Positions 1 to 60,138 of a stretch of 64,000 bases of DNA are shown in pieces; within the stretch, counting starts at the first letter, position 1; each line of letters starts with the position of its first letter. The notes under the pieces were generated by a model. That model worked only from the letters and a program-made list of their open reading frames with translations, did no database searches and was not told the DNA's origin. Position numbers and translations under genes: made by a program. This DNA comes from a virus. Taxonomy: Duplodnaviria; Heunggongvirae; Uroviricota; Caudoviricetes. The DNA is taken from the IMG/VR virus record IMGVR_UViG_3300017747_005082, positions 73,618 to 137,617 of that record; one strand, 5' to 3'.

Positions 1-18
1 ACATAACTTTGTTTTTAA

Positions 19-378: not shown

Positions 379-394
379 AACTATTTTTTAACGA

Positions 395-408: not shown

Positions 409-519
409 AATATTTTTAATAATCAAGTACCTTATTAAGGTCTCTGTTTATCACATTTATCTAAACTATCATCTAATATTTTTCTAATAAATAATGATTC
501 TTCAGTTGATTCCTGTTGT

Positions 520-840: not shown

Positions 841-859
841 AATTATTTATTAATTATAA

Positions 860-873
860 TGTAAATATATGAA
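860..873 (-). promoter_or_regulatory. conserved promoter-like motif
   Basis: tgtaaatatatgaa upstream of 520..840. Confidence 0.5.
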
Positions 874-901
874 TTAAAGATTAATAATCCAATACCTAAA
901 T

Positions 902-1468: not shown

Positions 1469-1471
1469 AAC

Positions 1472-1891: not shown

Positions 1892-1916
1892 AACTATATT
1901 GTTTTAATTATTATGT

Positions 1917-1930
1917 TGTAAATATATGAA
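1917..1930 (-). promoter_or_regulatory. conserved promoter-like motif
   Basis: tgtaaatatatgaa 26 nt upstream of the 1472..1891 ATG. Confidence 0.5.
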
Positions 1931-1957
1931 AGTAATCTTAGAAATCAAATTCCAAAA

Positions 1958-2473: not shown

Positions 2474-2694
2474 AATTTACTTTTAAGTAATTGTATTTCC
2501 TTTAACAAGCTTTGAATTTCTTCTGTGGATTGTGCTTCATCAGCTCGTCTTTTGATATCAAGTATCTTTTTGTAATTATTTTCGTTTTCTAGGTTTTCCC
2601 TTGACCATTTTTCTAGGTTTTCTTCTGACCATATAAACTTAATAATAATCGTTAAAATAACAATAATCAAAATAAAGATTTTTAATATATCCAT
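2470..2694 (-). CDS. small membrane-anchored coiled-coil protein (74 aa)
   Basis: N-terminal hydrophobic segment ILIIVILTIIIKFIW; promoter motif 2712-2725. Confidence 0.45.
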   Translation of the reverse strand: MDILKIFILIIVILTIIIKFIWSEENLEKWSRENLENENNYKKILDIKRRADEAQSTEEIQSLLKEIQLLKSKL

Positions 2695-2711
2695 AATTTA
2701 AATTTCTATGT

Positions 2712-2725
2712 TGTAAATATACGAA
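2712..2725 (-). promoter_or_regulatory. conserved promoter-like motif
   Basis: tgtaaatatacgaa upstream of 2470..2694. Confidence 0.5.
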
Positions 2726-2735
2726 AAACAATTTA

Positions 2736-3101
2736 TTAGTCTACTACCTTAGTATAATGTCCTATCCTTTTCCTTATTTGATCTTCCAATACAACTTCCA
2801 CTACAATTTCTGTATTAGTTGTTTTATAAAAACCAAATTCCATTTCATTATAATAAACAATATATTTAAATTCATTTTCAAATACATCATCTAGTGTTAA
2901 AACATAAATATTATCAAATAATTCTAAAGAAATATTATGTTTAGTTACTACTAATGGTGTATGAAGATATACTGAGATAAAATCTCCCTGTAACCATTTT
3001 GGTGTTTCTTGTATAATTTCTGTTTTTGATTGATGATGGAACTCTTCTGTTTCACAACTTATCAAAAACAAAGTTAATAACAATAGTTGAAATATTTTCA
3101 T
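2736..3101 (-). CDS. putative lipoprotein (121 aa)
   Basis: Signal peptide ending LFLISC (lipobox-like Cys). Confidence 0.45.
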   Translation of the reverse strand: MKIFQLLLLTLFLISCETEEFHHQSKTEIIQETPKWLQGDFISVYLHTPLVVTKHNISLELFDNIYVLTLDDVFENEFKYIVYYNEMEFGFYKTTNTEIVVEVVLEDQIRKRIGHYTKVVD

Positions 3102-3373
3102 ATTTTTTCTTTTTTAATATAAAACCAATAATATAAAATTTTATTTTGTTTCTACTTTAATTAAAAATAATTTATTATCAAAATTACTATTATCAACCAT
3201 ATTTTTAATAGTATTCGCAACCTTTTCATGATTATCTCCAAATACTTCAATAATATATTTAGCTTTCCCTAAATATTTTCCATCTTTGATAAAATATTCC
3301 CTAGGATTATCTTTAATAGGATAAATTTTATTACTTTTAGAACTTACATAAAATGTTTCTGATGTTGGCATAA

Positions 3374-3865
3374 TTAATTCAGTTTAAATCCAATTTTAAT
3401 TTCCCCAGACCATTGTATTTTAGGTTTTGCACCGGAGAATATAAAGTCTTCTCTCCAATCTCCACTTCCTCTTACTCCTATAATTACAACATCTCCCCAT
3501 TGAAAATCAATTCCTGCTTCTACCCCAGCTCCAGGGTATTTTTCATCACCTCTCCAAATAAATCCTAATTTCCCTCCAGCATAATATCTCCATTCATCAA
3601 AGGTACCATAATTTAGACTTACTCCCATTCCGGTCATCCAATCAGTATATCCACCCTTTAATTTATCAAAATTTCTTATACCTGAATGGATATAAAACCA
3701 ATAACACTGATATTCAATTTCAACTCCTATATTCACTCCTTCTTCTTTAATAGAAGAAAAAGGGTCTGAAATTATATTAAAATTAGCTCTTTCAGTGTCT
3801 CCAAATTTAATTTGTGCTGTGCTACTTACTGTAGTTAATAAAATAGCAAATAGTAGTTTTTTCAT
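3374..3865 (-). CDS. secreted/outer-membrane beta-barrel-like protein; true start probably the internal Met (MKKLLFAILLTTVSSTAQ)
   Basis: Bacteroidetes-type signal peptide; alternating aromatic/Gly-rich strands; C-terminal ...GFKLN; promoter motif 3900-3913 sits inside the longer track ORF 3374..3928, supporting the shorter start. Confidence 0.45.
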   Translation of the reverse strand: MKKLLFAILLTTVSSTAQIKFGDTERANFNIISDPFSSIKEEGVNIGVEIEYQCYWFYIHSGIRNFDKLKGGYTDWMTGMGVSLNYGTFDEWRYYAGGKLGFIWRGDEKYPGAGVEAGIDFQWGDVVIIGVRGSGDWREDFIFSGAKPKIQWSGEIKIGFKLN

Positions 3866-3899
3866 AACCTTAATTTTTAATAATTTATAATTTATATAT

Positions 3900-3913
3900 T
3901 GTAAATATATGAA
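3900..3913 (-). promoter_or_regulatory. conserved promoter-like motif
   Basis: tgtaaatatatgaa upstream of the internal Met of 3374..3928. Confidence 0.5.
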
Positions 3914-4302
3914 AAATAATTTAACCAACCAATTCCATATTTACTTTGATAATTTATATGTTGTTGAACATCCAGCAATACCTACAAATTGTTTCTTTTT
4001 AAGTTTACATTTATTACAATGATATTTAGAAACAGAACCTGAATATCCGTAATAACTATAAGTCTTTTTCCATTTATGTTTACAAAACAATATTTTGGAT
4101 ATTTTTCTTATAAAATTATACATAAATTATTCTGGTAGAATTACCTCGAGCTTCTGCTAAAATCATTCTTCTTTGTTTCATTTGGGTAATTTCCAAAGTA
4201 TCCCAATCAGTATACTCAACTTTCATCATAGTTTGAGTAAAAACTCTATAATGACCATCGATTTCTTGGATTCTAAATTTTCTTCTTAATTTTTTTAATA
4301 AT

Positions 4303-5061
4303 TTAGCTTTCATAATTTCTATGTTGTTTAATTATTCTATAACTTCTTGAATCATATTTATTTTCAGAATCCATCAGTTTTCCTGATAGTAATAAATCCA
4401 TTATTTCATATCTTATTGAATTAGTTTCACAAGCTAAATTACTTTCAATAACATAATCAATTTTTCCATATGGATTATATTTTTGTAACCATTCATCATG
4501 AAATTTAAAATTATATTCTCCAGTTTCCTCATTATATGCATATGTTGACCAATTTAATTTATCAATTTGGGAAATTACAAACATATAGGATATAAATGAA
4601 GGAGAAAATATATTCCAAGGTAAATCTCCATCATTATGTGCTCTATATTCTATATATTGTAAAGCTCTAAATATTTCACCTATTAAAGTATTAGATTCTC
4701 CACTCTCAGGGATATTATTTTTAATAAATTTATCCGTTTGAATTTTTAAATCTTCCGATACAGGAAATAATGGATTTCTTTGTTCCATTTTATGATGAAA
4801 TTTAGGTTCTATCTTATTTATTTTAGTAAATAATCTTGATTCTAATTCCTCAATTGTAATTTGAATATACTCTCCTATATCCACATATCCACATTCTCTG
4901 TTAGAGGAAATAGAAATTTTAGATTTTTTAGCTATTTTAATTAATAAATCATTATTATTATATTTATCTACATATAAAAAATCTTTATTTGGAATTTCTT
5001 TTAATTCATTAATAACTTGAACTATTATTCGTAATTTTTGAATATTTGATAATTGTTTCAT
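4303..5061 (-). CDS. hypothetical protein (252 aa)
   Basis: ORF track; promoter motif 5087-5100. Confidence 0.5.
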   Translation of the reverse strand: MKQLSNIQKLRIIVQVINELKEIPNKDFLYVDKYNNNDLLIKIAKKSKISISSNRECGYVDIGEYIQITIEELESRLFTKINKIEPKFHHKMEQRNPLFPVSEDLKIQTDKFIKNNIPESGESNTLIGEIFRALQYIEYRAHNDGDLPWNIFSPSFISYMFVISQIDKLNWSTYAYNEETGEYNFKFHDEWLQKYNPYGKIDYVIESNLACETNSIRYEIMDLLLSGKLMDSENKYDSRSYRIIKQHRNYES

Positions 5062-5086
5062 AACCTTAATTTTTAAATTTCTATAT

Positions 5087-5100
5087 TGTAAATATACGAA
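5087..5100 (-). promoter_or_regulatory. conserved promoter-like motif
   Basis: tgtaaatatacgaa upstream of 4303..5061. Confidence 0.5.
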
Positions 5101-5353
5101 ATATTGTTTAATATATCAATTCAGATAGTAAATTATTTTAAACAAAACATTTATTTTCGAAATTTAATACCTTTATTCCAATTTTCAATTAACCAATTCA
5201 AAAGTAGAATAAGAAAATAAAATAATAAAAGTACACCAAACAATCCCAATGATAAGCTAGCACCTATTTGTAAATCTACTTCAAAATGAATTAATAAAAA
5301 CATTGTTACTAAATATACTATAGAACAAACAGATAAAATAATGTGTTTTACTT

Positions 5354-5584
5354 TCATAACTCTTTTTTTAAAAATTTATTTATATCCTTTTCAGTTAAAA
5401 ATGGAGTTGTAATTATAGGAAATTCCTCATCAAATCCAAAATATTGTTTTTCTGCTTTACGATTTCCACATCTACACTCATAAACTATTTGTCTAGTTCC
5501 AAATGTAATGTAACGACTCACTATTGGTTTATTATACCAACATATATGCGTTTTTTTAAATAACTTTAATATAAATCGTATCAT
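5354..5584 (-). CDS. small Cys-rich (zinc-ribbon-like) protein (76 aa)
   Basis: C-W...C-R-C-G arrangement. Confidence 0.35.
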   Translation of the reverse strand: MIRFILKLFKKTHICWYNKPIVSRYITFGTRQIVYECRCGNRKAEKQYFGFDEEFPIITTPFLTEKDINKFLKKEL

Positions 5585-5919
5585 AATTCATTGTTTTAAA
5601 ATATTAAAAAACAAATCGTCCAGATAATAAAAAAAAAGAATATTACTAGCCCGATTGCAACCCCTTCATTGTCTTGATTATCTTTCATTGTTTCCTGATT
5701 AATAGTTAGAAGCAAAAGGAATATTAGGATATTTCCAATGTGTAGGAAATAATTCAATTGATTCATCAGAAACATCATAAAATTTTCCTTTTTTGAATAT
5801 CGCAATTTTAGGAGCCATTGGTTTTGAATCCATTCCAACAAAAACCTTTTCGTTTTCTTTTGGTTTGCTTAAATTTAAATCTGTATACATAGTTTTTTAT
5901 TTTAGGGTTTATTTCCTGA

Positions 5920-6147
5920 TTAATGGTTAGTATTTGCGGATAAATCTTTTGCGATTAGATAGGCACAATCAGGCTTGTGTTTTATTTTTGACATTTCTGT
6001 CTGTTTATTGCCGTAGCCTATTATTTCCATTTCATAACAAAAAGGGCATGTTGTTTCATAATAATTTGGAATGATATTTATGACTTTTTTACATAATTCC
6101 TGAACATCCTTTTCTCTTTGTTCAGAATGATTTACATTTACTTCCAT
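5920..6147 (-). CDS. small protein, member 1 of a tandem trio with a shared leader (75 aa)
   Basis: Start context TAATCATTAAGAGTAATGG also precedes 6160..6330; local G+C higher than surroundings. Confidence 0.45.
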   Translation of the reverse strand: MEVNVNHSEQREKDVQELCKKVINIIPNYYETTCPFCYEMEIIGYGNKQTEMSKIKHKPDCAYLIAKDLSANTNH

Positions 6148-6159
6148 TACTCTTAATGA

Positions 6160-6330
6160 TTAGTGTGGATTAATTTTGTTGTACATTTCTACTATAAATT
6201 TAGCATCTTCTACGTTTTCACATACACATATAACTGCATATCTTGCTTCTTCATTCCAACCCTTAACGGAAATTATTTCTTTCGGGTTGTTTTTGTCCTG
6301 TTGCCATCGGCCTAATGTTGGAATTGCCAT
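6160..6330 (-). CDS. small protein (56 aa, below the track cutoff), member 2 of the trio
   Basis: Translated by eye: MAIPTLGRWQQDKNNPKEIISVKGWNEEARYAVICVCENVEDAKFIVEMYNKINPH; preceded by TCATTAAGAGTATGGCAATT. Confidence 0.4.
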   Translation of the reverse strand: MAIPTLGRWQQDKNNPKEIISVKGWNEEARYAVICVCENVEDAKFIVEMYNKINPH

Positions 6331-6351
6331 ACTCTTAATGATTAAAGATTG

Positions 6352-6570
6352 TTATCTAAATCTTACATCTGCTGTTCCGTTACCACCATCATATACTCCT
6401 CTAGTTTCACAACCATTAGAAATACAATATTCATCAAATTTTTTAGCATCTTCATGAGATTTAAAACCCATTGCCCAAATCCAATTGATACCATTTTCTA
6501 TAATAATATCTGGATTAATTGTTTTAGCAAATTCTATTGCTTGTTGACAGTGTATATCTATAATTGCCAT
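6352..6570 (-). CDS. small protein, member 3 of the trio (72 aa)
   Basis: Shares the ATGGCAATT start with 6160..6330. Confidence 0.45.
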   Translation of the reverse strand: MAIIDIHCQQAIEFAKTINPDIIIENGINWIWAMGFKSHEDAKKFDEYCISNGCETRGVYDGGNGTADVRFR

Positions 6571-6853
6571 AATATTTAATCAGTTTATTACATGATTAGG
6601 TAGCTTTTAGTTAGTTAATTTTATTCAGAAATATACAAAGCAATATGTCTAGTTATACCATTATCATCAAATCTATCCATAATTTCTGTTAATGTAATAC
6701 TTTTTATATATGTATCAATTACAGTATTCTTAAGTATATTACCATTTGGTTCATATAATATATTTTCTAATATAAACCATACATTATAAGGTTTATCATT
6801 AAACCAACGATTACCTGATTTTTCATCTTTACTAGGTATATAAAATATTGTCT

Positions 6854-7288
6854 TCATATTATTACAGAATAAATAGTATAAACTAATATATATTTAACAG
6901 TAAATTCTTCATCATCTAAATATTCATATTGTGGGTTAAGATTCCCAATATATTTTCCCCATTTATGCCATCTCCAACCTCCCCCTTTTCCTCGATTTTC
7001 CTTGTTTTGAAATACTGGAGTTATTGATACTATATAAAATTTTTGTAAATCTTTAGTAATATCTTTATAATAATCTGTAATTTGTTCAACTGAATCTGCT
7101 ATTCCATATTCATATGGGGTAAGAGTTTCTAAAAATTCTCCTTTGGGAAAATTAAAATCAAAAATATCTCTATATACTCCTCTTAAAAGAGTATTTTTAA
7201 ATTGAGGGGTATATTCAAAATTATTTTCTTTGGCTACTATCTTTCTTCTTTCAATTTCTTCTATATTTGGAGTTAAATTTATTAACAT
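6854..7288 (-). CDS. hypothetical protein (144 aa)
   Basis: ORF track; promoter motif 7314-7327. Confidence 0.5.
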   Translation of the reverse strand: MLINLTPNIEEIERRKIVAKENNFEYTPQFKNTLLRGVYRDIFDFNFPKGEFLETLTPYEYGIADSVEQITDYYKDITKDLQKFYIVSITPVFQNKENRGKGGGWRWHKWGKYIGNLNPQYEYLDDEEFTVKYILVYTIYSVII

Positions 7289-7313
7289 AATTTCTAATTA
7301 TTAATTTTATATT

Positions 7314-7327
7314 TGTAAATATACGAA
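7314..7327 (-). promoter_or_regulatory. conserved promoter-like motif
   Basis: tgtaaatatacgaa upstream of 6854..7288. Confidence 0.5.
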
Positions 7328-7622
7328 ATAATTATAATAAATATTATACCTTATTGATAAGCTATCCACCAATCCCCTTTAACAAAAATAATTTGAAATT
7401 TATCAAATTCCTCTATCCCTATAGATTTTGATTTTATAGATACATTATATAATATTAATAAAGTTGCAGTTTTATCAACAGTAATAGTATAATTATTAAA
7501 ATCTAATAATTCGATTTTGTTTTTATTTCCTTCATTTTGTGAAGCACTATTAATATATTCCTCAAATTTTTCCTCTTCAATTGAAGGGAAACTATTTTTA
7601 AACTGATTATATTCTTCTATAT

Positions 7623-8147
7623 TCATAACGGATTTAAATGATAATTTGGGTTAAACATTTTAATATGTGGAATTAATATATCAATAATAAAATTAGAAGA
7701 TGGAATTGAATCTTTTTTATTATTGTTACAAGTTTTACATAATGTCATTAAATTATATATACTACTGTTTTTGGATTTTGAATATGGTATTATATGATCA
7801 ACAGTTAAATTTTCTTCAGTATTACAAAATATACAACATTTATCCCTATCTATAATAGTTCTCCTCTTTCCCGGTTTTATTGTACATGATTTCTGTGTCT
7901 GTAATTGAAAATTATTTTTATACCAAAGATAATATGAAATGGAAGGATATAAAAATTTATAAAAATTATTATATTCAATTAATTCATTATCTTCAACTTT
8001 TTTATATGTTGTAAATTGACTAGCATGACCTTGAATACAATATATTTTTGATTTAGTTATAGATTTACTTAAAATATCTTGTAATAATTGATATTTTCTC
8101 CCATGTAATAACTTTCTTTTTCTTGTAATATAATTTGCTAATGTCAT
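7623..8147 (-). CDS. HNH endonuclease (174 aa), free-standing
   Basis: C-x2-C ... VDHIIPYSK ... N..NL..LC..CN..K, a canonical HNH/zinc-finger arrangement. Confidence 0.7.
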   Translation of the reverse strand: MTLANYITRKRKLLHGRKYQLLQDILSKSITKSKIYCIQGHASQFTTYKKVEDNELIEYNNFYKFLYPSISYYLWYKNNFQLQTQKSCTIKPGKRRTIIDRDKCCIFCNTEENLTVDHIIPYSKSKNSSIYNLMTLCKTCNNNKKDSIPSSNFIIDILIPHIKMFNPNYHLNPL

Positions 8148-8153
8148 GAATTC

Positions 8154-8360
8154 TCAATAAATATCATAATAAGGATTTTCAATTACTTTCCAAGTTCCAT
8201 CATTAAAAAGTGAAAGTACATTTTCAATATTATAAATAGTAGAACCATTATTCCAAGTTATATATATTTTTTTAGGCTCAATAATATTACCAACTTTATA
8301 TACAGTTTTTGAATTAGCATTAAATGAAACTCCTATTAAATCATTTATATTTTTATACAT
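8154..8360 (-). CDS. YEIY-family small protein (C-terminus ...YYDIY)
   Basis: C-terminal Y-D-I-Y before stop; promoter motif 8388-8401. Confidence 0.5.
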   Translation of the reverse strand: MYKNINDLIGVSFNANSKTVYKVGNIIEPKKIYITWNNGSTIYNIENVLSLFNDGTWKVIENPYYDIY

Positions 8361-8387
8361 AATTTTAAATTTTACCTTGTAAATATA

Positions 8388-8401
8388 CGAATTATATTTT
8401 A
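8388..8401 (-). promoter_or_regulatory. conserved promoter-like motif
   Basis: tgtaaatatacgaa upstream of 8154..8360. Confidence 0.5.
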
Positions 8402-8482
8402 TATATTATTTACCTAAATTAAAAAATGCTTGGAATGATATTTCTATCTTCCCAAGCATTAATTTATTATATTATATATTAA

Positions 8483-8899
8483 TTAGCAACCACTACCTGC
8501 TGGAGCTGAAGTACCTTCAAAATGAGCTGCAACTATAGTTTTGTTAGAACTATTTATAAACCAAGAATATGTAAAATAATAGGTTGAACCATCTCCTAAT
8601 TTTACTTCAGCATATCCACCTCCGCTAGTTCCTGAAAAGGATGGATTTCCACAAAATCTGATTATATTTCTTGAATTAACTTCATTAGGGTGTTCTGTTA
8701 AATATTCTACTTCAGTAGTAAGAACACTTGTAGCTTCTTTGATTTGTGCTTCTGTTGGCGCTTGAGGAATATTTGGATTTCCATCATCACCTTTTGCTAC
8801 GGTTACTGTTTTTTGTTGGTATTTGTTAGTTGTATCATCTGAACTACATGAAAATAGTGTTGATGAAATTAAAAATAATCCTAAAATTAATCTTTTCAT
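8483..8899 (-). CDS. putative lipoprotein (138 aa)
   Basis: MKRLILGLFLISSTLFSCSSDD lipobox. Confidence 0.5.
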   Translation of the reverse strand: MKRLILGLFLISSTLFSCSSDDTTNKYQQKTVTVAKGDDGNPNIPQAPTEAQIKEATSVLTTEVEYLTEHPNEVNSRNIIRFCGNPSFSGTSGGGYAEVKLGDGSTYYFTYSWFINSSNKTIVAAHFEGTSAPAGSGC

Positions 8900-9556
8900 T
8901 TTTGGTGTAAGTATATTTGATTTTAAATTTTTGTCTACTCTATTCAGTTTTCGACTACCCTGTTAATAAATTTGTTTTTGGCCAATTTAATTTATTTAGC
9001 ACCCTTTATCTTTTCAGTACATCAACGCTACACCACCATTTCTGGATTTACATAAGCTGTCTATAGCACAACATCAAGATAATTAGGGTCACATAGTTAA
9101 TATACTTAACGATTTTAAGTCTGTGTGGTTAAGCATTAAGGTACTGACTAACTTCCTCCCATATTAACTATTTGCTGAGAATTGCATAAAAGCAACCAAG
9201 TCCTCACGGATACTTGCTCATTTGTGTTGTAGCCATTAATACTAATAGACTCTTGTACTTTATTCCTTTCTCAAGGGAACAACACATCTAACATTTCTGC
9301 ATTAACACCATAGACCTGTATTCGATGGAAGACACTACCTTTTTTCCACCAACTGAGTTAGCAACTATACTCAATGCGAATTACTTCTTAGTGACATGTT
9401 AACATCCTGTCAATTCAGGATTAGTATCTTTATGTAAATTATTAGATAAAGCATTTCTTTTCTGGATGTAAAATCTCCATTTATTATGAAACATATTTAT
9501 AATCTCCTTTTCTAATATATTTACAAAGGTATTCAATGTTTAACCTTTTATTTTGT

Positions 9557-9613
9557 TGGGAGAAAAGGATTCGAACCTTTAAGTAATATGCTCTACCAAT
9601 TGAGCTATCTCCC
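9557..9613 (-). tRNA. tRNA-like element (57 nt), apparently lacking a complete anticodon arm; possibly a degenerate tRNA or attachment-site remnant
   Basis: Minus strand GGGAGAT-AG-CTCA-ATTGGTA-GAGC-A...AAAGG-TTCGAAT-CCTTT-TCTCCC-A: acceptor, D-arm and T-arm (GGTTCGAATCC) are recognisable, but only about 8 nt lie where a 17-nt anticodon arm should be. Confidence 0.3.
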
Positions 9614-9625
9614 TATTTTTATTTT

Positions 9626-9832
9626 TTAAATATCTCCAAGACAATCATTATAATGAGAATGTCCACAAGTACAAGTTCCATATCTATCATATATTTCTAC
9701 ATCAAAAGGACAATCCATACCTTTTCCAAATTCTTTTTTATGAATTAACTTAGGAATATTTCTGTTTAAATTTCTTTGATATCTTTTATGGGCTCTTTCT
9801 TTTTTCTTTAAGATCTTATCCTGTCTATTCAT
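9626..9832 (-). CDS. small basic Cys/His-rich protein (68 aa)
   Basis: Lys/Arg-rich N-terminus, then CPFD...CTCGHSHYNDC. Confidence 0.35.
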   Translation of the reverse strand: MNRQDKILKKKERAHKRYQRNLNRNIPKLIHKKEFGKGMDCPFDVEIYDRYGTCTCGHSHYNDCLGDI

Positions 9833-10136
9833 AATAATAAATTTATTTAAAAATCCTCTAATCCATTTCCATGTGGACTATTATTTATCTGACTCTTGTA
9901 CAGATAGTAGTAACTGGAAATAATAGCTTACAATAAACAACCTACTCATGGCAGTAGTGTAATAAAACTTAGATATATTTATAATCTTAATTCTTAACGT
10001 GAGCGGGCTTTACTTACACCGTCATTTCTTCCATGCAAGCTTATATTAACTCCTTGGGATTATAACATCTTAGAGCACTCACTACAGATGTATCATATTT
10101 TATTACTGTTTATCTTCAGTTAGAGGATTTATTATT

Positions 10137-10556
10137 TTAATATGGACATAAAACAGATATTGGAGTCATACTAATTGACCACTGACTTGATGTAATTCCA
10201 TTAACTGTTGTAGTAGTAAATACAAAATGAAATGCTAAACCAACATTATATACCTTATGTCCCATCTTTGGTGTACCATGTTGGCATGTAGGTTGTCTTG
10301 GTGTATCTTCATAACTTTCTGTTGAAAAATAAATAGCTTCAGATTCCACTAACATTTCAAATTCATTTGTTAAATCAGTAATATTTAATGTATATTCCGT
10401 TGCGAGTTTCTCTAAATCAATATTAGATATATCTTGATTTAAAGTTTTTATATTTTTTGATTCAAGATTATTTTGTTTTTCCTGATTATCCTCAACGGAA
10501 CAAGATGTAATACTTATTGTAAATATACATAATAGACTTAAAAATAATTGTTTCAT
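10137..10556 (-). CDS. putative lipoprotein (139 aa)
   Basis: MKQLFLSLLCIFTISITSCSVED. Confidence 0.5.
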   Translation of the reverse strand: MKQLFLSLLCIFTISITSCSVEDNQEKQNNLESKNIKTLNQDISNIDLEKLATEYTLNITDLTNEFEMLVESEAIYFSTESYEDTPRQPTCQHGTPKMGHKVYNVGLAFHFVFTTTTVNGITSSQWSISMTPISVLCPY

Positions 10557-21010: not shown

Positions 21011-21463
21011 TCAATTTTTATTTTCATCTTTTACAATTTCAATTAATTTTTCTAGACAAGCATGTCTTGCTTCTTCATAAGAATTTACTACTTGATAAAA
21101 AGGTTTTTCTATATAAGGATGTCCATCAGCAATACCTATCCAATGATTTAATATTTCACCATAACCGCTGTATCCATTTTCTTCACACCCAATTGACCAT
21201 GAATATAGTAATCTATCTCCTATTTTATCAGGATTATATCTTGGAAGTATTTCAGCGTGTAAATTATATTTCTCTCTAAACCAATCAAAAGCCTGTTGCC
21301 ATAGTGGTGCTTTAACAATATCACTTAAAGGTTCTCCAAATGTTCTATTGTTAATACCTCTCATTACAAATTCACCTCTTAGATATTCAGCAAGACAACG
21401 TTCATCAAATCCTAAATCTTTTAGGTCTGAAGATAATGTGGAAGGTACAAATTGTTTTTCCAT
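21011..21463 (-). CDS. MKEQ mosaic-family protein, copy 2 (150 aa); paralog of 51685..52086
   Basis: [12 protein letters not shown](E/K)K and [14 protein letters not shown](V/I)K blocks; about 50 nt of near-identical DNA at the 3' end. Confidence 0.6.
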   Translation of the reverse strand: MEKQFVPSTLSSDLKDLGFDERCLAEYLRGEFVMRGINNRTFGEPLSDIVKAPLWQQAFDWFREKYNLHAEILPRYNPDKIGDRLLYSWSIGCEENGYSGYGEILNHWIGIADGHPYIEKPFYQVVNSYEEARHACLEKLIEIVKDENKN

Positions 21464-50784: not shown

Positions 50785-51692
50785 TATTTATTATTTAAAA
50801 TTTTACTAATTAGTGCTATAAATTGTATTTCTCTATCAGGAGCAGTAACAGCTTTATATTGAGATTCAGCAATCATCCATGGTATTGTAATATTATCTGA
50901 ATATTCATCTAGTTTATCAAATAATAATCTATATAATTCAGAATATTCTTTTAAATCTAAATCTGCTACTATTTGTCTTATTTTATTAAAATCTTTTGGG
51001 TTTTTACCCTTTAATAATTTAATTATCTCTTCTCCTTCTTTTTCAATATTTTTAGAAGTATCTGTTATTATTAACTTACCTGTTTTGGAAAATGATTGTA
51101 ATTTAATTAAACATTGTCTAGTATCAGGGTATGTTAAATTCACTACTTTAGCTAGTTCAGTATTTTCAAATTTAATATTTTCTTGTTCTAAGATATATTT
51201 ACATTTAGCTGCTAATTCTGATTTTGTAGGAGGTTTTAATTCATATCGTTCTAATCTACTTTGAATAGGTTCTAACATCCTCTCAAAATAATTACAAGTA
51301 AATATAAAACGAGTAGTACTACTAAAAGTCTCAATAATATTTCTTAAAGCAGATTGTGCTGCTGGTGTTAAAAAATCTGCTTCATCTAATACTATGATTT
51401 TCAAAGTCATAAAACTAGCTGTAGAAGCAAATGATTTAACTTTTTCTCTAATAGTATCAATTCCATTTTCATCAGAAGCATTTATATAAAGACTATCACA
51501 GGGAATAGAAGAAGTAATTACTTTCGCTGCAGTTGTTTTCCCTGATCCTGCTCTACCACTTAATATAATATTAGGAATAGAACCTTCTTCAATCCATTTT
51601 TGTAAATCTGCTCTAAATAATGGGTTTCCTATATATCCCTCGAGACTTGTTGGAGAGTATTTTGCCCAATATAAATTATGTTCGTTATTCAT
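50784..51692 (-). CDS. clamp-loader AAA+ ATPase (RFC small-subunit / T4 gp44-like, 302 aa)
   Basis: Walker [10 protein letters not shown], Walker [12 protein letters not shown]-type QSRLERY motif. Confidence 0.75.
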
Positions 51693-52086
51693 TTCCTTTT
51701 ATAATTTCAATTAATTTTTCTAGACAAGCTTGTCTTGCTTCTTCATAAATTTGTTTAGTTTTTCCTAAATCATCATTATCAACAAGTATATTAGAATTTT
51801 TTTCACTTCCACATATAGTATAAAAATAATAATCAAAATTATCACCTATATAATCTTTTCGTTCTATATTAGAATCTATTAATTTATTTTTTCTAAACCA
51901 ATCAAAGGCCTGTTGCCATAGTGGTGCTAATATCCAATAAATTTCTTTTTCAGGCTGTTTTTTAAACTCCCCAAATATTTTGATAATTTCTTTAGTTTTA
52001 GTATGATAAGTGGACAAACAAGGTTCATCAAAACCTAAATTTTTAAGTTCTAGTGCTAATTCATAAGGTATAAATTGTTCTTTCAT
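51685..52086 (-). CDS. MKEQ mosaic-family protein, copy 3 (133 aa)
   Basis: Paralog of 21011..21463 with near-identical DNA patches. Confidence 0.6.
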
Positions 52087-52323: not shown

Positions 52324-53949
52324 TTAATATAATGAAGGTTGTTCTTTTTGTTCTTCTCTTTTTTCAATAACTAAATTATTTGTTGTTAAAATAGTTCCAG
52401 CTACTGAAGAAGCATTTAGTAATGCATATCTAGTTACTTTTACAGGATCTAAAATACCTTTAGTTCTCATATTAACAATAGATTCAGAAACTAAATCATA
52501 TCCATTCCAAATATCAGGTTTTTTAGTTAAATCAGATATTAATTTTTTAATATCTTCACTATCATAACCAGCATTTTCAAGAATTCTAGTAAATGGAGCA
52601 GAACAAGCATCATATACAATTTGCTGTCCTAATTTAATATCTTTATCTATTTCATTAAAAATGATTCCTTCTCTAGCATATAATAAAGCAGAACCTCCTC
52701 CAGGTAATACTCCTTCTTCTATGGCAGCACGAGTAGCATGTAATGCATCATCTACCCTATCTTTTTTCTCTTCAATTTCTACTTCAGAATTACCCCCAAT
52801 AGAAACTACAGCAACTCCTCCTACCATTCTTCCTAAACGTTCTTGAAGTTTTTCTTTCTCGAATGGAGATGATGCTTTATCAATTTGAGTTTTAATTTCC
52901 TCAGTTCTCTTTTCTATTTCTGCTGGTTCACATTCTCCATCTACTATTGTAGTATTTTCTTTAGTAATAGTTACAGTACGAGCATTACCTAAATATTTAT
53001 TCCATTCATTTGGATTTATTTTATCCAATTTCATTCCTTTTTCAGTAGATATAACTTGTCCTCCTGTTATAATTGCTAAATCTTCTAACATAGATAATCT
53101 TCTATCTCCAAAATCAGGAGCTTTGACAGCAACTGAATCAACAACTCCTCTAACTTTATTTACAATTAAAGTTGATAAAGCTTCTCCGTCAATATCCTCA
53201 GCAATAACTAATAATGATCTTTGTTCAATATTAGCTTTATTCATAACTCCAACTAAATCTTGGGCTGATGTTATTCTTCCACTATATATAAGAATTAATG
53301 GTTTTTCTAAAGTAGCTTGCATTGTATTGTTATCAGTAACAAAATATGGAGATTTATAACCTCTGTCAAACTGCATTCCTTCTACAACATCTAAACTGGT
53401 TTCTCCAAATTTAGATTTTTCAACCGAAATTATACCTTCTCTACCTACTTTATCTATAGCTGTAGAAATTAATGTTCCGATTTCAGGATCATTATTACCA
53501 GATATAGTTGCTACTTCTTGGATTTGGGAATTTTCTGTTATATCTGCTTTATTTTCTTTCAGTTTTTCAATAACTTGTTTAACAGCTAAATCAATACCTT
53601 TCTTAACAGAAACAGAATTAGATCCTTTTTCCATAACTTTGAAACCTTCTTTTATAATACTAGTAGCTAGTAATGTTGATGTCGTAGTACCATCACCTGC
53701 TTTATTATTAGTATCTTCCGATACTTTTTTAACAAGTTGTGCACCCATATCTTCAATTTGATCTTCCAATTCAATAAAACCTTTCGCTACAGAAACACCA
53801 TCCTTAGTAGTTTTAATTTTACCATATTGGTCTTTAAGCAGAACTGTTCTTCCATAGGGACCTAATGTATCAGATACTGCATTATTTAATTTCTCTATTC
53901 CTCTTAATAAACCGGCTTGTAATTTTTCTCCGTTTTCTGTTTGTGTCAT
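52324..53949 (-). CDS. groEL: chaperonin GroEL / Cpn60 (541 aa)
   Basis: Collinear GroEL blocks: TKDGVSVAK, AGDGTTTSTLLA, VVEGMQFDRGY.SPYF, AVKAPDFGDRR, GGVAVVSIGG, DALHATRAAIEEGV.PGGG, GILDPVKVTR. Confidence 0.9.
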   Translation of the reverse strand: MTQTENGEKLQAGLLRGIEKLNNAVSDTLGPYGRTVLLKDQYGKIKTTKDGVSVAKGFIELEDQIEDMGAQLVKKVSEDTNNKAGDGTTTSTLLATSIIKEGFKVMEKGSNSVSVKKGIDLAVKQVIEKLKENKADITENSQIQEVATISGNNDPEIGTLISTAIDKVGREGIISVEKSKFGETSLDVVEGMQFDRGYKSPYFVTDNNTMQATLEKPLILIYSGRITSAQDLVGVMNKANIEQRSLLVIAEDIDGEALSTLIVNKVRGVVDSVAVKAPDFGDRRLSMLEDLAIITGGQVISTEKGMKLDKINPNEWNKYLGNARTVTITKENTTIVDGECEPAEIEKRTEEIKTQIDKASSPFEKEKLQERLGRMVGGVAVVSIGGNSEVEIEEKKDRVDDALHATRAAIEEGVLPGGGSALLYAREGIIFNEIDKDIKLGQQIVYDACSAPFTRILENAGYDSEDIKKLISDLTKKPDIWNGYDLVSESIVNMRTKGILDPVKVTRYALLNASSVAGTILTTNNLVIEKREEQKEQPSLY

Positions 53950-53964
53950 ATATCTTTTTAATTA

Positions 53965-54258
53965 TTATTTAATAGCAGCTAATAAATCAGAAATAGAAGC
54001 TACAAAATAGTCTACTCTATCTAATGTCACTTTTTGTGCTCCCATTGATGGGAAAACTACAATATCTCCTTCATTAAACATGCAAGGAACTATAGTTCCT
54101 GTATTATAATTGTATATTGGAGCTAATTTAATAATCTCAGCTTGAGAAGCTCTTGTATTTTCTATATCAGGAATAATTATATTTCCCTGAAATTGTTCTC
54201 CTTCTTCAATAGGTTTTAAAATAGCTTGTCCATAATTAGGGACTAATTGTTTACTCAT
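53965..54258 (-). CDS. groES: co-chaperonin GroES/Cpn10-like (97 aa)
   Basis: GroES length and pattern (L.P..D..I.K...E......G.I.......), C-terminal EGDIVVF...VTLD....F; directly downstream of... upstream of groEL in transcript order. Confidence 0.65.
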   Translation of the reverse strand: MSKQLVPNYGQAILKPIEEGEQFQGNIIIPDIENTRASQAEIIKLAPIYNYNTGTIVPCMFNEGDIVVFPSMGAQKVTLDRVDYFVASISDLLAAIK

Positions 54259-55617: not shown

Positions 55618-56523
55618 TTAAGAGAAATTAAAATAATCAGTTATATAAGAATTAAATACAACAGAACCATATTTTAAATCTTCATAAATTTTTTCTATCT
55701 TTTTTTGGAGTACTGTTTCAAATAATTTATTTTTATCAATATATTCTTCTACTAAATCTACTATTTCTGGGGGATCATCATATCCTTTAAATGCTATCAT
55801 ATCTAACATATATGGATTTTTCTTTAAATAAGCTAAATATATTTTATCTCCTAATTGGATTTGGGAATATTGTTTATCCCAACCTTTAAATTTTAATATA
55901 TCATTATATTTAATGGAACCTTTTGTATTGGGTGGTGCTTTCTTTTGTAAAGTTGAAAACATTTTTCCTGGGGGTGGTGGAGAAGCAATATATTCTTGTA
56001 TTTTTTTAATACCTGTAGGTTTACATAATTTCCTCCAATTTACTTCATTTATTGAATCTCTAAAATCAATAATAAATTTATCTACTTCTGTTTTAGAAGT
56101 AGCAAATAATATTTTTTTAATTAATTCTTCTCCAAAACCTCTAAAATGTGGAGGGAAATTAGATTTCATAATATCTAATCCCATTACTACAAGTTTTTCT
56201 ATGGGAATACCTTCTTTATCAACTTGCCATTGAGCATATCTTCTTTTTCCTGACCAATAAGCAGATTGAAGAATAAATTCAGGTTTTAAATCGAAATAAT
56301 GTTCATCACAATTTAAAATATTTTTAGCAAGTATAGTTTGTTGTTTATTTAATACTGCCCCTACATCTTTTTGTAATGTTTTAACCTTAGGTAATACTTC
56401 TTCTTTATCAGTTAAATCTAAAGTAGGATAAAGTTTAGTTAATACAGGTTCAAAACAAATAAAACATGAATCTGTATCACTAGCAGCAATATGTTTATTT
56501 ATTTTATGGACATCAAAATTCAT
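55618..56523 (-). CDS. family-B DNA polymerase, C-terminal fragment (palm motif C + thumb, 301 aa)
   Basis: HIAASDTDSCFICF contains motif C (DTDS); lies downstream of the N-terminal fragment. Confidence 0.75.
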   Translation of the reverse strand: MNFDVHKINKHIAASDTDSCFICFEPVLTKLYPTLDLTDKEEVLPKVKTLQKDVGAVLNKQQTILAKNILNCDEHYFDLKPEFILQSAYWSGKRRYAQWQVDKEGIPIEKLVVMGLDIMKSNFPPHFRGFGEELIKKILFATSKTEVDKFIIDFRDSINEVNWRKLCKPTGIKKIQEYIASPPPPGKMFSTLQKKAPPNTKGSIKYNDILKFKGWDKQYSQIQLGDKIYLAYLKKNPYMLDMIAFKGYDDPPEIVDLVEEYIDKNKLFETVLQKKIEKIYEDLKYGSVVFNSYITDYFNFS

Positions 56524-56533
56524 ACTTTTATTT

Positions 56534-56923
56534 TTATATAATTTTTAATGCTTCTAATAGTCCTGTTTCCAATGCTTCTTCGTAGGTTTTATAATAATTT
56601 TGTAAATCATATTCTTGAAAATTATTATGTTTATCAAGATATACCATTATTATAAAATAATTTGTTTTAGATGGTGAAATTAATATATTAATATTATGAA
56701 CTTCTCTTATCCATTTTTGAAGTAATGATTGTGTTGGAGCATTATAACAATCTTTTAATCTAAAAGCTGATGAAAAAATAGCTTTTTCTAAACTAAATAA
56801 ATTACCTTCAGGACTATAAACGTTTTGTTGAGATATTCTTATTTCTCCATTAGATGTTTTATCAAAAAACTCTTTTTCTTTAGCTAACTTGGCTGTTTCG
56901 AATGATATTAGTTGTTCTTTCAT
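56534..56923 (-). CDS. MKEQ mosaic-family protein, copy 4 (129 aa), inserted within the split polymerase gene
   Basis: Paralog of 902..1468: first ~50 nt and the PTQSLLQKW region near-identical at DNA level. Confidence 0.6.
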   Translation of the reverse strand: MKEQLISFETAKLAKEKEFFDKTSNGEIRISQQNVYSPEGNLFSLEKAIFSSAFRLKDCYNAPTQSLLQKWIREVHNINILISPSKTNYFIIMVYLDKHNNFQEYDLQNYYKTYEEALETGLLEALKII

Positions 56924-56931
56924 ATTAATTG

Positions 56932-57588
56932 TTATTTAACGTAATCTTTATAAGCAATAAAATCATTATCTTCATCTCCTTTATCTTCATCATCCATAAG
57001 ACCTAAGTCTTTTAAATGTTCCTTCATATAAGGATCTAAATCCCAAGTAACTTCATTGGTTTTCGAAGTATCAACATGAGATTCTATATCTTGGATTTGT
57101 CTTTTAGTAAATACATCTCCTACAGTTAAATAATAACAATTATAACAAATTAATTCTAAATTAGGTTGTCTCCAATTTTTTCTATTTCCATCTTTAAAGT
57201 TAATTAATAATGGTACTTTATAATCAAGAACTCTTGCCTCATCAAAACCACAACGATTGCATCTTTCAAAGAATATTAAATCTCTAATTAAAGCAGTTTT
57301 GAATTTTTCGATATCATAATTATCGATAGTGGTAATTTCTCCTTTTAAAATCATTTGAAGATCACCTCCTTTTCCTTTATTATTATAAAATTTAGGAACA
57401 CCTTTACCACTTTGGTTCTTATGTTTTTCCCATAATGTTTTTCCTGTTTCTTTATCTATATATAATTTGGCATATTTTCTATATGTCCAAAAACTTACAT
57501 TAAGATATTTAGCAGCTGCTATATTTGATTTAGTAACAGCCATAGCTCTTAAAATATCTTGTTCTGTTCTAATTTTCGCTGCAGGCAT
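56932..57588 (-). CDS. HNH-like homing endonuclease inserted in the DNA polymerase gene (218 aa)
   Basis: N-terminal HTH-like segment (AAKYLNVSFWTYRKYAKLY); C-terminal C-x2-C ... INFKDGNRKNWRQPNLELIC-x2-C zinc-finger/HNH-like core (the His is not canonical); ATG overlaps the upstream stop. Confidence 0.5.
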   Translation of the reverse strand: MPAAKIRTEQDILRAMAVTKSNIAAAKYLNVSFWTYRKYAKLYIDKETGKTLWEKHKNQSGKGVPKFYNNKGKGGDLQMILKGEITTIDNYDIEKFKTALIRDLIFFERCNRCGFDEARVLDYKVPLLINFKDGNRKNWRQPNLELICYNCYYLTVGDVFTKRQIQDIESHVDTSKTNEVTWDLDPYMKEHLKDLGLMDDEDKGDEDNDFIAYKDYVK

Positions 57589-57591
57589 AAT

Positions 57592-59445
57592 TTATTTTTT
57601 TAAATAGGTTTCTTCAATATGTTCATTAGCATATTTAATTGTTTCGCAAACCATTCTTTGTCCAGTACAAGTAATAGCTGATGATAATATTTTGAAACCA
57701 TCTGTAAATCTCCAAGCATTAATTGCAAATGCTCCATAAACGGCATTTAATAGAATTTTGAATGAGTGTTGTTGAGAATCATATAATTTTCCTAAAACTT
57801 CATCACCTTCTTTATAGGCAATTTCCATTTTATGTTTATATTCCTTTCTTAATTTAAACCAATCTGTTAATACTTTAGCTACTACACTTTGAGTATCTGT
57901 TCTAAATATAACCCCATTAGCAGAAATAGTCCAGTTTTTATCTTCTATATTTTTTACTATTTTACCAATGGTAGTATTATGAGTAGTAAAAGTATATGTT
58001 TCCTTATCAAGAATTTCAAATTGGATTTCTTCATTTTGGTTTTTATTCTTTAAATCTTCTAACCCCCACCAAATATTTCTAGTTGGATTATCAATTGCTA
58101 TTCTTCCTATTAAAGTTTCAATACCTAAATTTAAAGATCTAATAATTGATGGATATAGGGAAGCATAATCAAAATCACTCAACCATCTATATATTCCTGG
58201 AATAGGTTCTAATAAAAATCCTCCAGCATATGATTCTTTTTTACGAATAGTTTTAATTCCTCGTAATTTTAATTCTCCTAACGCTGTTTTTACATAAACT
58301 TCCTCTCCTTCAACAGAATGTACCTCTCCTTCAATAGTTGGAGTACCTCTTTGATGAACAACTATATCTCCTTCGTTTAATTCACGAATTTCTTTATTAA
58401 TAGTAGTAGGTTTATTATGAACTATTATTCCTTCACGTTTTAAATAAGTAAGAATAGCTCCCTCATTTAAAACTGTATTATAATAAATAGATTCATAAGA
58501 AGTATGACATAAATGTGAAATTAAAATAGTTAATTGAACAAATTGTAAGTTTTTCTCCAATTCTTCAATAATTTCAACATCACGAATATTATAATCAATA
58601 TATTTTTCAGGGTCTTCCTCAAATAATTGATCTAAATTTCCTTTATATTCAATTTTACCAAGTTTAGCATATTTAATACCAATATCATGCAATTTATATG
58701 ATGGTTCTTCTTTTGTAATATATTTTTTAGTCAACCTCATGAAATCTAAACAATTTATACCACCTATAGTGATAGGATTATCAGGATTTGCAGGTTGATT
58801 AATTACTTTTTTTATTGGAGATAATAAATTAGCTGTTTCTTCACCAAATACTTTTAAAATCCTACAATACAAATAAGGCATATCGAAATAATCACTATTC
58901 CAGCCAACAACTATAGTAGGATCTAATTCTCTCCATTTCTTTAAAAATTTAGAAATTAAATCTCTTTCACTATAACATACTATAATTTGTTTTCCTTCTT
59001 TTTGTAAATCTGTTAATTTAGATTTTCCATCAACAATAAAACATATCTTTTGTTTAGTAGTTATATCTATTAAAGCTATTGAAGTTAATTCTGCTGGAGC
59101 AGCTTGTATATAACTAGGTGTTAAAGAACCCAACAACTGAATCTCAATATCTAAATAAAGTATATTATGATATGAAGGTTGTGAATCATCTTTATAATAG
59201 AAATCTCTTAAAACTGCTATTTCTTTTTGGATATCCTTTTCAAGAATGTGGTTATCAAACCAATCATACTTTCCTTCTACTTTGGATACTCTTTTTCCAA
59301 ATAAAGTACTATACTCCCCTTCAGGATTTACTTCATAAACTGGTGGAGAATATTTAAATCTTTTCCATTTTTCAATATCATCTCTGAGGTAAATATATCC
59401 TTTATCTGGGTTCTTCCTTCTTTCAAAAAAAATTGCTTGGTACAT
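57592..59445 (-). CDS. family-B DNA polymerase, N-terminal fragment (3'-5' exonuclease + palm/fingers, 617 aa)
   Basis: Exo I YLDIEIQ, Exo II WNSDYFDMPYL, Exo III YNIRDVEII, Pol motif A DFDYASLYPSII, motif B KILLNAVYG. Confidence 0.85.
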   Translation of the reverse strand: MYQAIFFERRKNPDKGYIYLRDDIEKWKRFKYSPPVYEVNPEGEYSTLFGKRVSKVEGKYDWFDNHILEKDIQKEIAVLRDFYYKDDSQPSYHNILYLDIEIQLLGSLTPSYIQAAPAELTSIALIDITTKQKICFIVDGKSKLTDLQKEGKQIIVCYSERDLISKFLKKWRELDPTIVVGWNSDYFDMPYLYCRILKVFGEETANLLSPIKKVINQPANPDNPITIGGINCLDFMRLTKKYITKEEPSYKLHDIGIKYAKLGKIEYKGNLDQLFEEDPEKYIDYNIRDVEIIEELEKNLQFVQLTILISHLCHTSYESIYYNTVLNEGAILTYLKREGIIVHNKPTTINKEIRELNEGDIVVHQRGTPTIEGEVHSVEGEEVYVKTALGELKLRGIKTIRKKESYAGGFLLEPIPGIYRWLSDFDYASLYPSIIRSLNLGIETLIGRIAIDNPTRNIWWGLEDLKNKNQNEEIQFEILDKETYTFTTHNTTIGKIVKNIEDKNWTISANGVIFRTDTQSVVAKVLTDWFKLRKEYKHKMEIAYKEGDEVLGKLYDSQQHSFKILLNAVYGAFAINAWRFTDGFKILSSAITCTGQRMVCETIKYANEHIEETYLKK

Positions 59446-59577
59446 TATTTATTTGATTTATTTCTATTTCCTATTTGATATGAATAACCAAATAATTTTG
59501 CTATTTCTGTTGTTTTAAATAATGGTTGATGATTTGTGAAGTGGAAACATTTCTGTTGTTCTTCTAAAATAATTAAA

Positions 59578-60138
59578 TTAAAAGAAGAGCATGGAATTAT
59601 ATGGTCTATTTTTCCCATTTAAAATTTTAATTGCTTTTTCAGCACATATTCTAGTTAAACCATATCCAATATCAATACAATCTTCATGGTTATTATTTTT
59701 ACTACATATTACAAAGTTATCTTTTTGTGAAAATAACATATCATTATCATCATCTAAAATAACATAATTATCTACTTTATTTTCTTTTAACCAATATTCG
59801 ATTTCACAACCTCTTGGGATTGAATAACCCCTTATTTTAGGAGTGGGTTTTTCTAATAATTTATTATTCCAAAATCGTATACTCCCCCCCTTTTTTAAAT
59901 ATAAACTAGGAGTAGTATCAATTAATTCACCAGGTAAATTTCTATCTAACCACATAGATTTCATTTCCTCTAATCCGTTTTTTCTCCAAGAAGAAGAAAT
60001 TACAATTTTAGCTCCTGTTGAATCTATAATCCATTTTAAATTATCTTCAAAATGTTTATGAAATATTTTACCATATTTATCATGACCTTGTCCTATAACA
60101 TTCAAAACACCATCAATATCTAAAAATATTACTTTCAT
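59578..60138 (-). CDS. HAD-superfamily phosphatase (186 aa)
   Basis: N-terminal FLDIDGVLN (DxDG[T/V]) motif. Confidence 0.55.
   Translation of the reverse strand: MKVIFLDIDGVLNVIGQGHDKYGKIFHKHFEDNLKWIIDSTGAKIVISSSWRKNGLEEMKSMWLDRNLPGELIDTTPSLYLKKGGSIRFWNNKLLEKPTPKIRGYSIPRGCEIEYWLKENKVDNYVILDDDNDMLFSQKDNFVICSKNNNHEDCIDIGYGLTRICAEKAIKILNGKNRPYNSMLFF

Follow-up and report, generated by a model that had tools for sequence, protein, structure and literature searches.

We analyzed a 64,000-nucleotide stretch of a Caudoviricetes virus (positions 73,618 to 137,617 of IMG/VR virus record IMGVR_UViG_3300017747_005082; this whole stretch is called the window below) in which the family-B DNA polymerase (PolB) is encoded by two separate open reading frames (ORFs), designated polN and polC, with an interruption of 1.07 kb between them that holds an HNH-like ORF, an ORF of the MKEQ family and only 21 non-coding bases in total. 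Our favored explanation, to which we assign a probability of roughly 0.85, is that the replicative PolB is a two-subunit enzyme made from two cistrons, and that the break between these cistrons is a hotspot for homing endonuclease genes (HEGs). An earlier note, made from the sequence alone, had given the coordinates of these four ORFs, which all lie on the minus strand, and had placed the break between polymerase motifs B and C; ORF translation, the phrog_262 profile and an alignment with T4 gp43 confirm both the ORF coordinates and the motif B/motif C boundary.

The two halves together make up a complete polymerase. polN carries the three exonuclease motifs (i.e., LDIEI for Exo I, NSDYFDMPYL for Exo II and YNIRDVEI for Exo III), matches the Pfam families DNA_pol_B_exo1 (2e-16) and DNA_pol_B (5e-25), and ends in ...EETYLKK, 46 residues past motif B, while polC begins MNFDVHKINKHIAAS-DTDS, with 15 residues preceding motif C. 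Along the 856 positions of phrog_262, the PHROG DNA polymerase profile, polN covers positions 13-566 and polC covers positions 572-838; the halves thus abut and nothing is missing. When joined, they are colinear with T4 gp43 across the break, which falls at approx. K604/V605, 13 residues ahead of DTDS in this alignment, and they also align with fused relatives; protein identity to T4-type polymerases is <30%. Two further profiles, phrog_2062 and phrog_1918, match the halves at offset boundaries, which indicates that the break lies upstream of motif B in those families. The catalytic residues of Exo I-III, of motifs A, B and C and of the KKRY motif do not vary among 17 split and 39 fused homologs, and polC residues D16, T17, D18, S19, R94, R95 and Y96 are invariant across 40 stand-alone homologs. 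The ratios of nonsynonymous to synonymous substitution rates (dN/dS) were 0.14-0.26 for polN and 0.18-0.28 for polC, as rough values with dS near saturation. Purifying selection acts on both polymerase halves, and no catalytic residue has been lost.

To place the window among its relatives, IMG/VR was searched with a polC profile, 80 of 424 loci were fetched, and frames and stops were traced in each. Approximately 55 of these 80 loci encode a fused PolB (roughly 860-915 amino acids [aa]) and approximately 25 a split one; the break of every split locus falls in one shared variable linker, and polC begins 7-15 codons ahead of DTDS. The comparison with uninterrupted polymerases that the earlier note had proposed for defining the insertion point therefore locates the break in this linker. 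The two-gene arrangement was found again in dozens of independent contigs, a recurrence far beyond chance. At least 249 polC homologs were detected at E < 1e-10, and stand-alone proteins of approx. 300 aa number in the hundreds; the 120 best homologs reach down to 46% identity, and almost all of them are stand-alone proteins of 293-303 aa. Most database copies of polC are unnamed, and annotation pipelines will label the 301-aa half "hypothetical".

The content of the gap differs among these relatives. The order polN, HNH-like ORF, polC was found in locus L003 (polC identity of 78%; HNH-like ORF of 225 aa) and in L005 (65%; 218 aa), whereas in L006 (58%) and L007 (51%) polN and polC are separated by a DUF723/zinc-ribbon protein of 306 or 371 aa, and in L008 (48%) polN and polC overlap by 11 nt without any insert. 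The halves of L052 likewise overlap without an insert. In a simple neighbor-joining (NJ) tree of the concatenated polymerase, from which L073 was left out as too incomplete to be placed, every member of the window's clade is split but the occupant differs, and L045 and L085 (both with GIY-YIG genes) as well as L052 and L008 (no insert) represent separate splits nested among fused lineages. The peptides at the junctions differ accordingly. In the main clade the upstream half ends in "...E(E/K)YL(K/S)" and the downstream half begins with "M(N/K)F(D/N)(I/V)...", whereas in the GIY-YIG lineage, including L073, the corresponding peptides are "...TPPGQGNKK" and "ME(N/D)xD(Y/R)IITSDTDS". The linker of the fused L032/L033 polymerases reads "...KNDIHKDYIITSDTDS", and the flanking signature "YIITSDTDS" is common to these and to the GIY-YIG-lineage junction. 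The junction peptides support independence of the splits, and the linker ahead of motif C has thus been fractured repeatedly. Overall, these comparisons indicate that the split is ancestral and fixed in the window's clade and older than its present occupant, rather than the product of a recent insertion. The suggestion in the earlier note that the present cargo split the gene does not hold, as relatives at 46-78% polC identity share the break with unrelated, several or no inserts.

The ORFs found in the gap cluster into three unrelated nuclease families, two of which match PHROGs labelled as homing or intron-encoded endonucleases. The first is the helix-turn-helix (HTH) plus HNH-fold family of the window (218-228 aa; the window, L003, L005 and L011/12). 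The second comprises zinc-ribbon/DUF723 proteins (300-371 aa; 16 gap ORFs in 16 loci) that carry an "IEYDGxxH" domain at the C-terminus and match phrog_559 and phrog_9084 ("homing endonuclease") and phrog_7140 ("intron encoded nuclease"). The third consists of Seg-like GIY-YIG proteins with NUMOD (209-268 aa; L018, L045, L073 and L085). The gap of L011/12 holds a 3.2-kb stack that runs from a DUF723 nuclease gene through an MKEQ-like ORF, an ORF of 86 aa, an HNH-like gene and two small ORFs to a further MKEQ-like ORF, and the cargo of L004/L009 consists only of remnants of HNH-like and MKEQ genes. These data show that occupants turn over at the site, with at least three unrelated nuclease families and passenger ORFs having occupied, replaced or vacated the break. 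An assignment of the DUF723 nuclease domain to the Vsr-like/EDxHD group was considered and not made; a PDB sequence search returned noise and the matches to DUF2726 were weak.

Two loci among the relatives deserve a separate description. In L004/L009 (IMGVR_UViG_3300020045_010841, 1..2569; 73% identical), polC lies 1.6 kb from the contig end and is preceded by an HNH-like fragment (aa 162-218), an MKEQ fragment (aa 1-80) and several tiny ORFs. polN was not found within the 1.6 kb to the contig end, and a single-sequence polN scan of IMG/VR gave no match; the two halves may have moved apart in this genome, or the contig may be interrupted at this point. In the more distant L001 (LR756508.1, an uncultured 484-kb jumbo phage; 2364..10288), the PolB gene likewise has its break between these two motifs, approx. 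24 codons ahead of motif C of the polymerase. This phage carries a probable intein in motif B (ORF 2364..5417, with sub-threshold Hint matches at aa 598-673) and another in motif C (ORF 8423..10288, Intein_splicing at aa 59-339), and its 3-kb gap contains two paralogous ORFs of 250-270 aa, a dCMP/cytidine deaminase gene and a 266-aa ORF, without a recognisable HEG.

The features of the locus in the window are listed in Table 1.

Table 1. Features of the split polymerase locus, with positions numbered along the window
Feature	Position	Strand	Basis
polN, N-terminal PolB subunit, 617 aa (N-terminal domain, 3'-5' exonuclease with Exo I-III, palm part 1, fingers, helix after motif B)	57592..59445	-	ORF translation; Pfam; phrog_262
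polN motif A, DFDYASLYPS	58147..58176	-	
polN motif B, KILLNAVYG	57733..57759	-	
Spacer, 3 nt (TAA att ATG), polN stop to HNH-like start	57589..57591	-	sequence read
HTH + HNH-fold zinc-finger ORF, free-standing, 218 aa; putative resident homing-endonuclease-type gene	56932..57588	-	
HNH-like beta-beta-alpha/4-Cys core, aa 110-155	57124..57261	-	
Spacer, 8 nt, HNH-like stop to MKEQ start	56924..56931	-	sequence read
MKEQ-family ORF, 129 aa, phrog_12005; variable passenger gene in gap	56534..56923	-	
Spacer, 10 nt, A-rich, ahead of polC ATG	56524..56533	-	sequence read
polC, C-terminal PolB subunit, 301 aa (palm part 2, motif C, KKRY, thumb)	55618..56523	-	phrog_262, phrog_1918
polC motif C, DTDS	56467..56478	-	

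polN and the start of the HNH-like ORF share a reading frame, with only TAA-ATT between them (57586..57594). Fusion of the two products by stop-codon read-through was considered and rejected, as the frame relation is not kept in L003 or L005 and is probably coincidental. Ribosomal bypassing, as in T4 gene 60, is implausible across 1 kb of coding sequence. Directly upstream of polN, a 57-aa ORF (59445..59618, minus strand) overlaps the 3' end of a HAD-like gene (59578..60138) and represents the C-terminal remnant ("IDHIIPCS...NHQPL") of a zinc-finger plus canonical HNH/Endo VII-like family (phrog_1035; 211-252 aa). This family is present at full length in relatives (L040, at 4309..4944 right upstream of polN; L011, three copies; L005, one copy), and the remnant adjoining polN thus indicates that a decayed second nuclease gene flanks the polymerase.

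One alternative to a true split gene is an ORF-bearing group I (or II) intron that makes up the 1.07-kb interruption and is spliced out to give an uninterrupted polymerase mRNA. Phage DNA polymerase genes commonly contain group I introns with or beside HEGs (e.g., 43B of Aeromonas phage 25, PMC2988022; T7-like polymerases, PMC6083498), but several observations make an intron very improbable at this locus. An Rfam cmscan search of positions 55000-60000 on both strands at E <= 1 identified no intron family and only a spurious match to a small nucleolar RNA; the non-coding stretches measure only 3, 8 and 10 nt and are too short for a ribozyme core. The two inserted ORFs come from free-standing protein families, the HNH-like one being under purifying selection. 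Moreover, polN keeps its own stop codon and polC its own conserved ATG and N-terminal peptide in relatives with unrelated inserts, and L008 and L052 have two overlapping ORFs with no intervening sequence at all.

Protein trans-splicing, in which the halves of a split intein at the ends of polN and polC would ligate the exteins, can be set aside with near certainty, although there are precedents: split inteins flanking a free-standing HEG are described in fractured phage replication genes of marine metagenomes (PMC2677866), an atypically split intein is known in motif C of a metagenomic PolB (PMC10189870), and the relative LR756508 has probable inteins in both motifs. The stretch of polN after motif B is only approx. 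46 residues long, however, and polC has only 15 residues ahead of DTDS; both termini lie within a linker that is homologous to that of intact polymerases. The shortest known PolB Int-N/Int-C pair (15 + 168 aa; PMC10189870) does not fit these lengths, and the sole Pfam intein match in polN is sub-threshold and located inside the polymerase body (aa 267-397). On the strength of the Rfam result, the 3- to 10-nt spacers and the short termini, the locus is a true split gene that is neither intein nor intron with a free-standing ORF, as the earlier note had argued, and its proposal that two polypeptides are produced is the most likely outcome given the comparative evidence.

The HNH-like ORF matches phrog_14736 at 1.4e-9, its sole significant match. 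Pfam HNH and HNH_3 matches over aa 110-151 scored 12.4 and 12.1 bits, below the curated cutoffs of 21.4 and 24.8, respectively, and a PDB sequence search with this ORF returned noise only. An AlphaFold2 model (predicted local distance difference test score of 71) contains a beta-beta-alpha unit at aa 127-155, so that the protein is predicted to have a beta-beta-alpha-metal fold. At least 403 proteins of about 210 aa belong to the family, some of them from Tara Oceans. Residue F131 sits at the end of beta1, i.e., at the position of the general-base His in His-Me-finger nucleases, and of 120 homologs, 114 have F at this position, 3 have Y and 3 have H; those with His read "xNHKDGNKRN", a canonical HNH_3-type motif. 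C110, C113 and C148 are conserved and position 151 is C or H; E117, D122, P126, N143, Y149 and N150 are invariant in the 120 sequences, with N143 and N150 assigned as central Asn and distal metal ligand by motif register rather than from a metal-bound structure. With a dN/dS of 0.12-0.54, the domain is under selection yet non-canonical, and its nuclease activity is uncertain. Of the HNH-like endonuclease recognized in the earlier note, the HNH fold is therefore retained, while activity should not be assumed given the replacement of the catalytic His by Phe in most homologs.

Elsewhere the HNH-like family occurs as free-standing genes at unrelated loci in other phages. For example, L090/L091 and L092/L093 carry approx. 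52% identical members at unrelated intergenic sites of large phage contigs, among them a site immediately upstream of an ATP-dependent DNA ligase gene and one inside a glycosyltransferase/epimerase cluster. The distribution of the family suggests that it targets several different genes. The copies in the polymerase gap form a single clade within the family, which points to one colonisation of the site in the window's sublineage.

The residue pattern raises the question of whether this HNH-fold family, with Phe in approx. 95% of members and strong purifying selection, is something other than a conventional homing nuclease, namely a His-Me-finger enzyme whose catalytic residue has been relocated or a site-specific DNA-binding protein that has been domesticated; we regard this as unlikely. 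A related idea, compatible with the two-cistron explanation, is that the HNH-like protein (possibly also the MKEQ protein) has been domesticated as a DNA-binding regulator, an HEG immunity factor or an assembly aid. The loss of the general-base His from most of the family while zinc ligands and many core residues stay invariant, the purifying selection on the protein and the single clade of gap copies, which is consistent with long residence, all favor domestication, but the polymerase works, judged by conservation, with unrelated or no occupants, members at unrelated loci in other phages are the hallmark of a mobile gene, and three members retain the canonical His; on balance, we give domestication only a minor chance. 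As relatives have other occupants or none, the HNH-like protein is not needed for polymerase assembly. If it were domesticated, it might protect or regulate the split locus, for example by conferring immunity against nucleases that target motif C, and the fixed split might then be maintained because the polymerase gene has been made refractory to further HEG attack.

The second ORF in the gap belongs to the MKEQ family, corresponding to phrog_12005 with about 2000 unannotated homologs. Paralogs are encoded in the window at 902..1468 (minus strand; E = 5e-38) and 51685..52086 (minus strand; 1e-8), and a marginal one at 21011..21463 (minus strand; hidden Markov model E = 6e-4), so that the family described in the earlier note is real and large. 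In the gap, the MKEQ ORF is present in the window and L011, a remnant in L004/L009 and absent from L003 and L005, and its dN/dS against L011 is about 0.9. The fold is predicted confidently, but a fold search was uninformative and no nuclease or DNA-mobility feature was detected in the ORF. We treat it as variable passenger cargo; the link between this family and mobile-element behaviour that the earlier note had drawn is weak and not established.

We also examined the expression signals and genome context of the locus. No terminator-like sites were found between the four ORFs, and a sigma-70 promoter scan was uninformative (39 sites as compared to 38 expected from shuffles). A Shine-Dalgarno (SD)-like motif precedes only 3 of the 69 minus-strand window ORFs of at least 100 aa; A/T-rich leaders prevail, and the A-rich, SD-less start context of polC thus represents the genome norm. 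The window has a GC content of 25%, carries nearly all genes on one strand, contains no tRNA genes in its 64 kb, and encodes GroES (53965..54258, minus strand) and GroEL (52324..53949, minus strand). The nearest cultured relatives of this GroEL are those of Flavobacterium phage immuto (52.6% identity) and Bacteroides phages, which together with the SD-less pattern suggests a Bacteroidota host; the GC content, the near one-strandedness and the lack of tRNA genes in the window are consistent with a host of this type. The window's clade consists of uncultured, GroEL-encoding, myophage-like viruses that probably infect Bacteroidota. When GTDB genomes were searched with the polC profile, no relatives emerged, and consequently no host can be assigned from prophages or metagenome-assembled genomes. 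Similarly, a megablast search of the locus against 50,697 phage records gave no match, so that no near-identical isolate is available for comparing the insertion boundaries at the DNA level.

Phage immuto (L095, NC_055915.1) shares a module order with the window, i.e., 7-deazaguanine/queuosine genes, DNA polymerase, GroES and GroEL, with the difference that its DNA polymerase is of family A; this looks like a non-orthologous polymerase replacement inside a conserved module, and it makes immuto unusable as an experimental proxy. Such exchangeability of polymerases in the group, along with the fact that 64 kb of a 180-kb contig was examined, would fit a disrupted polymerase pseudogene in a virus replicated by a different polymerase of phage or host origin. 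Each half is an intact ORF with invariant catalytic motifs, however, and their dN/dS values (0.14-0.28) as well as the persistence of the arrangement through >50% protein divergence argue against decay; moreover, relatives still keep T4-like clamp-loader genes beside the polymerase. We thus regard a pseudogene as highly improbable.

Under the explanation we favor, a two-subunit PolB encoded at a homing hotspot, polN and polC would be carried on one transcript and translated separately, and their products would reassemble non-covalently to form an active site from two polypeptides, with the motif A Asp supplied by polN and the motif C Asp by polC. The break, which lies 15 codons ahead of DTDS in a variable linker and is ancestral to the clade, would serve as a landing pad for free-standing homing-endonuclease-type genes spreading by "intronless homing"; a nuclease would cut the conserved polB near motif C in a co-infecting relative without the gene, and recombinational repair would then copy the nuclease gene and its flanks across. 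We infer co-transcription, independent or coupled translation, subunit assembly and homing activity from the arrangement of the locus and its relatives.

Several points weigh against this explanation. The resident HNH-like protein is without the canonical general-base His, which makes active homing of its own doubtful, and the single clade formed by the gap copies fits vertical inheritance equally well as homing. The number of independent split events is approximate, as the tree is a simple NJ tree, and the cases without an insert could in principle include assembly frameshifts, although the L008 polC protein was called on six contigs. Assembly of the subunits is argued from conservation and precedent, and a second polymerase may possibly be encoded elsewhere, the window representing 64 kb of a 180-kb genome.

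The locus reveals a second natural break point in T4-type PolB, between motifs B and C, which would place the motif A and motif C carboxylates on separate polypeptides. Evolution has validated this break point throughout a large clade of uncultured phages, which makes it useful for polymerase engineering and split-enzyme design. The locus also offers an unusually clear life cycle of free-standing HEGs at one site (i.e., invasion, replacement, stacking, decay and loss) in which the host gene stays fractured, and supports the "gene-breaking by HEG" model (Dassa et al., Edgell et al.) with many intermediate states.

Essential genes fractured by HEGs that still give active enzymes are known from Aeh1 nrdA/mobE, from T4 genes 39/60 with mobA, and from gene 43 of Aeromonas phages 25 and 44RR (PMC2988022). 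The proteins made from Aeromonas 43A and 43B purify together and show polymerase activity (Petrov, Ratnayaka & Karam 2010, cited after the summaries in PMC2988022 and PMC2677866), and according to these summaries phage 25 has a GIY-YIG seg-like HEG between 43A and 43B while 44RR has a short intercistronic spacer only. We checked the sequence of 44RR2.8t, in which 43A (498 aa) and 43B (391 aa) are separated by 49 nt, 43B starts approx. 45 residues ahead of motif B ("NRKILINSLYG"), and 43B thus holds both motifs B and C. The likeness to 43A/43B proposed in the earlier note is accordingly one of general kind, with a T4-type PolB encoded by two adjacent cistrons and occupied and empty states that parallel phages 25 and 44RR, but it does not extend to the break site, which lies between motifs A and B in 44RR2.8t and between motifs B and C in the window, so that the break in the window is not of the Aeromonas type. 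Also unlike the Aeromonas phages, the window has no intron, and the split extends across a large and diverse clade, is associated with at least three families of nuclease and has recurred independently several times.

With Aeh1 nrdA-a/mobE/nrdA-b (Friedrich et al. 2007; Crona et al. 2011, PMC3045599) and T4 39/mobA/60, the locus shares an HNH-type HEG inside an essential replication or nucleotide-metabolism gene. In those systems two polypeptides reassemble into an active enzyme, and tight or overlapping ORFs suggest translational coupling. The window differs in its host gene, in a nuclease lacking the catalytic His, in the turnover of occupants and in a split that outlives the loss of the insert. 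Dassa et al. (2009) described replication and repair genes in marine phage metagenomes that are broken by free-standing GIY-YIG or Vsr-like HEGs, among them an intein-less case in which an SbcD-like gene from the Global Ocean Sampling (GOS) data carries a Vsr-like HEG and extra terminal residues beside the break (PMC2677866). Most of these loci rely on split inteins, whereas the window has no intein halves.

Split PolB enzymes also occur in archaea (Methanothermobacter thermautotrophicus PolB1/PolB2, Kelman et al. 1999, and Nanoarchaeum equitans, Choi et al. 2006; both cited in PMC4104785), where they are attributed to intein history. They resemble the window in that a family-B polymerase works from two polypeptides, but N. 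equitans trans-splices its product and has unlinked halves, and there is no HEG hotspot. The C-terminal piece of these archaeal polymerases, approx. 220-300 aa long, reportedly carries motif C and the thumb, the break being near motif C. The searchable open-access literature yielded no description of a phage PolB with a break between motifs B and C. Overall, genes fractured by HEGs are known, and what is new here is the break point between motifs B and C, the clade-wide fixation of the split, the turnover of nucleases at the site and the non-canonical HNH-fold resident.

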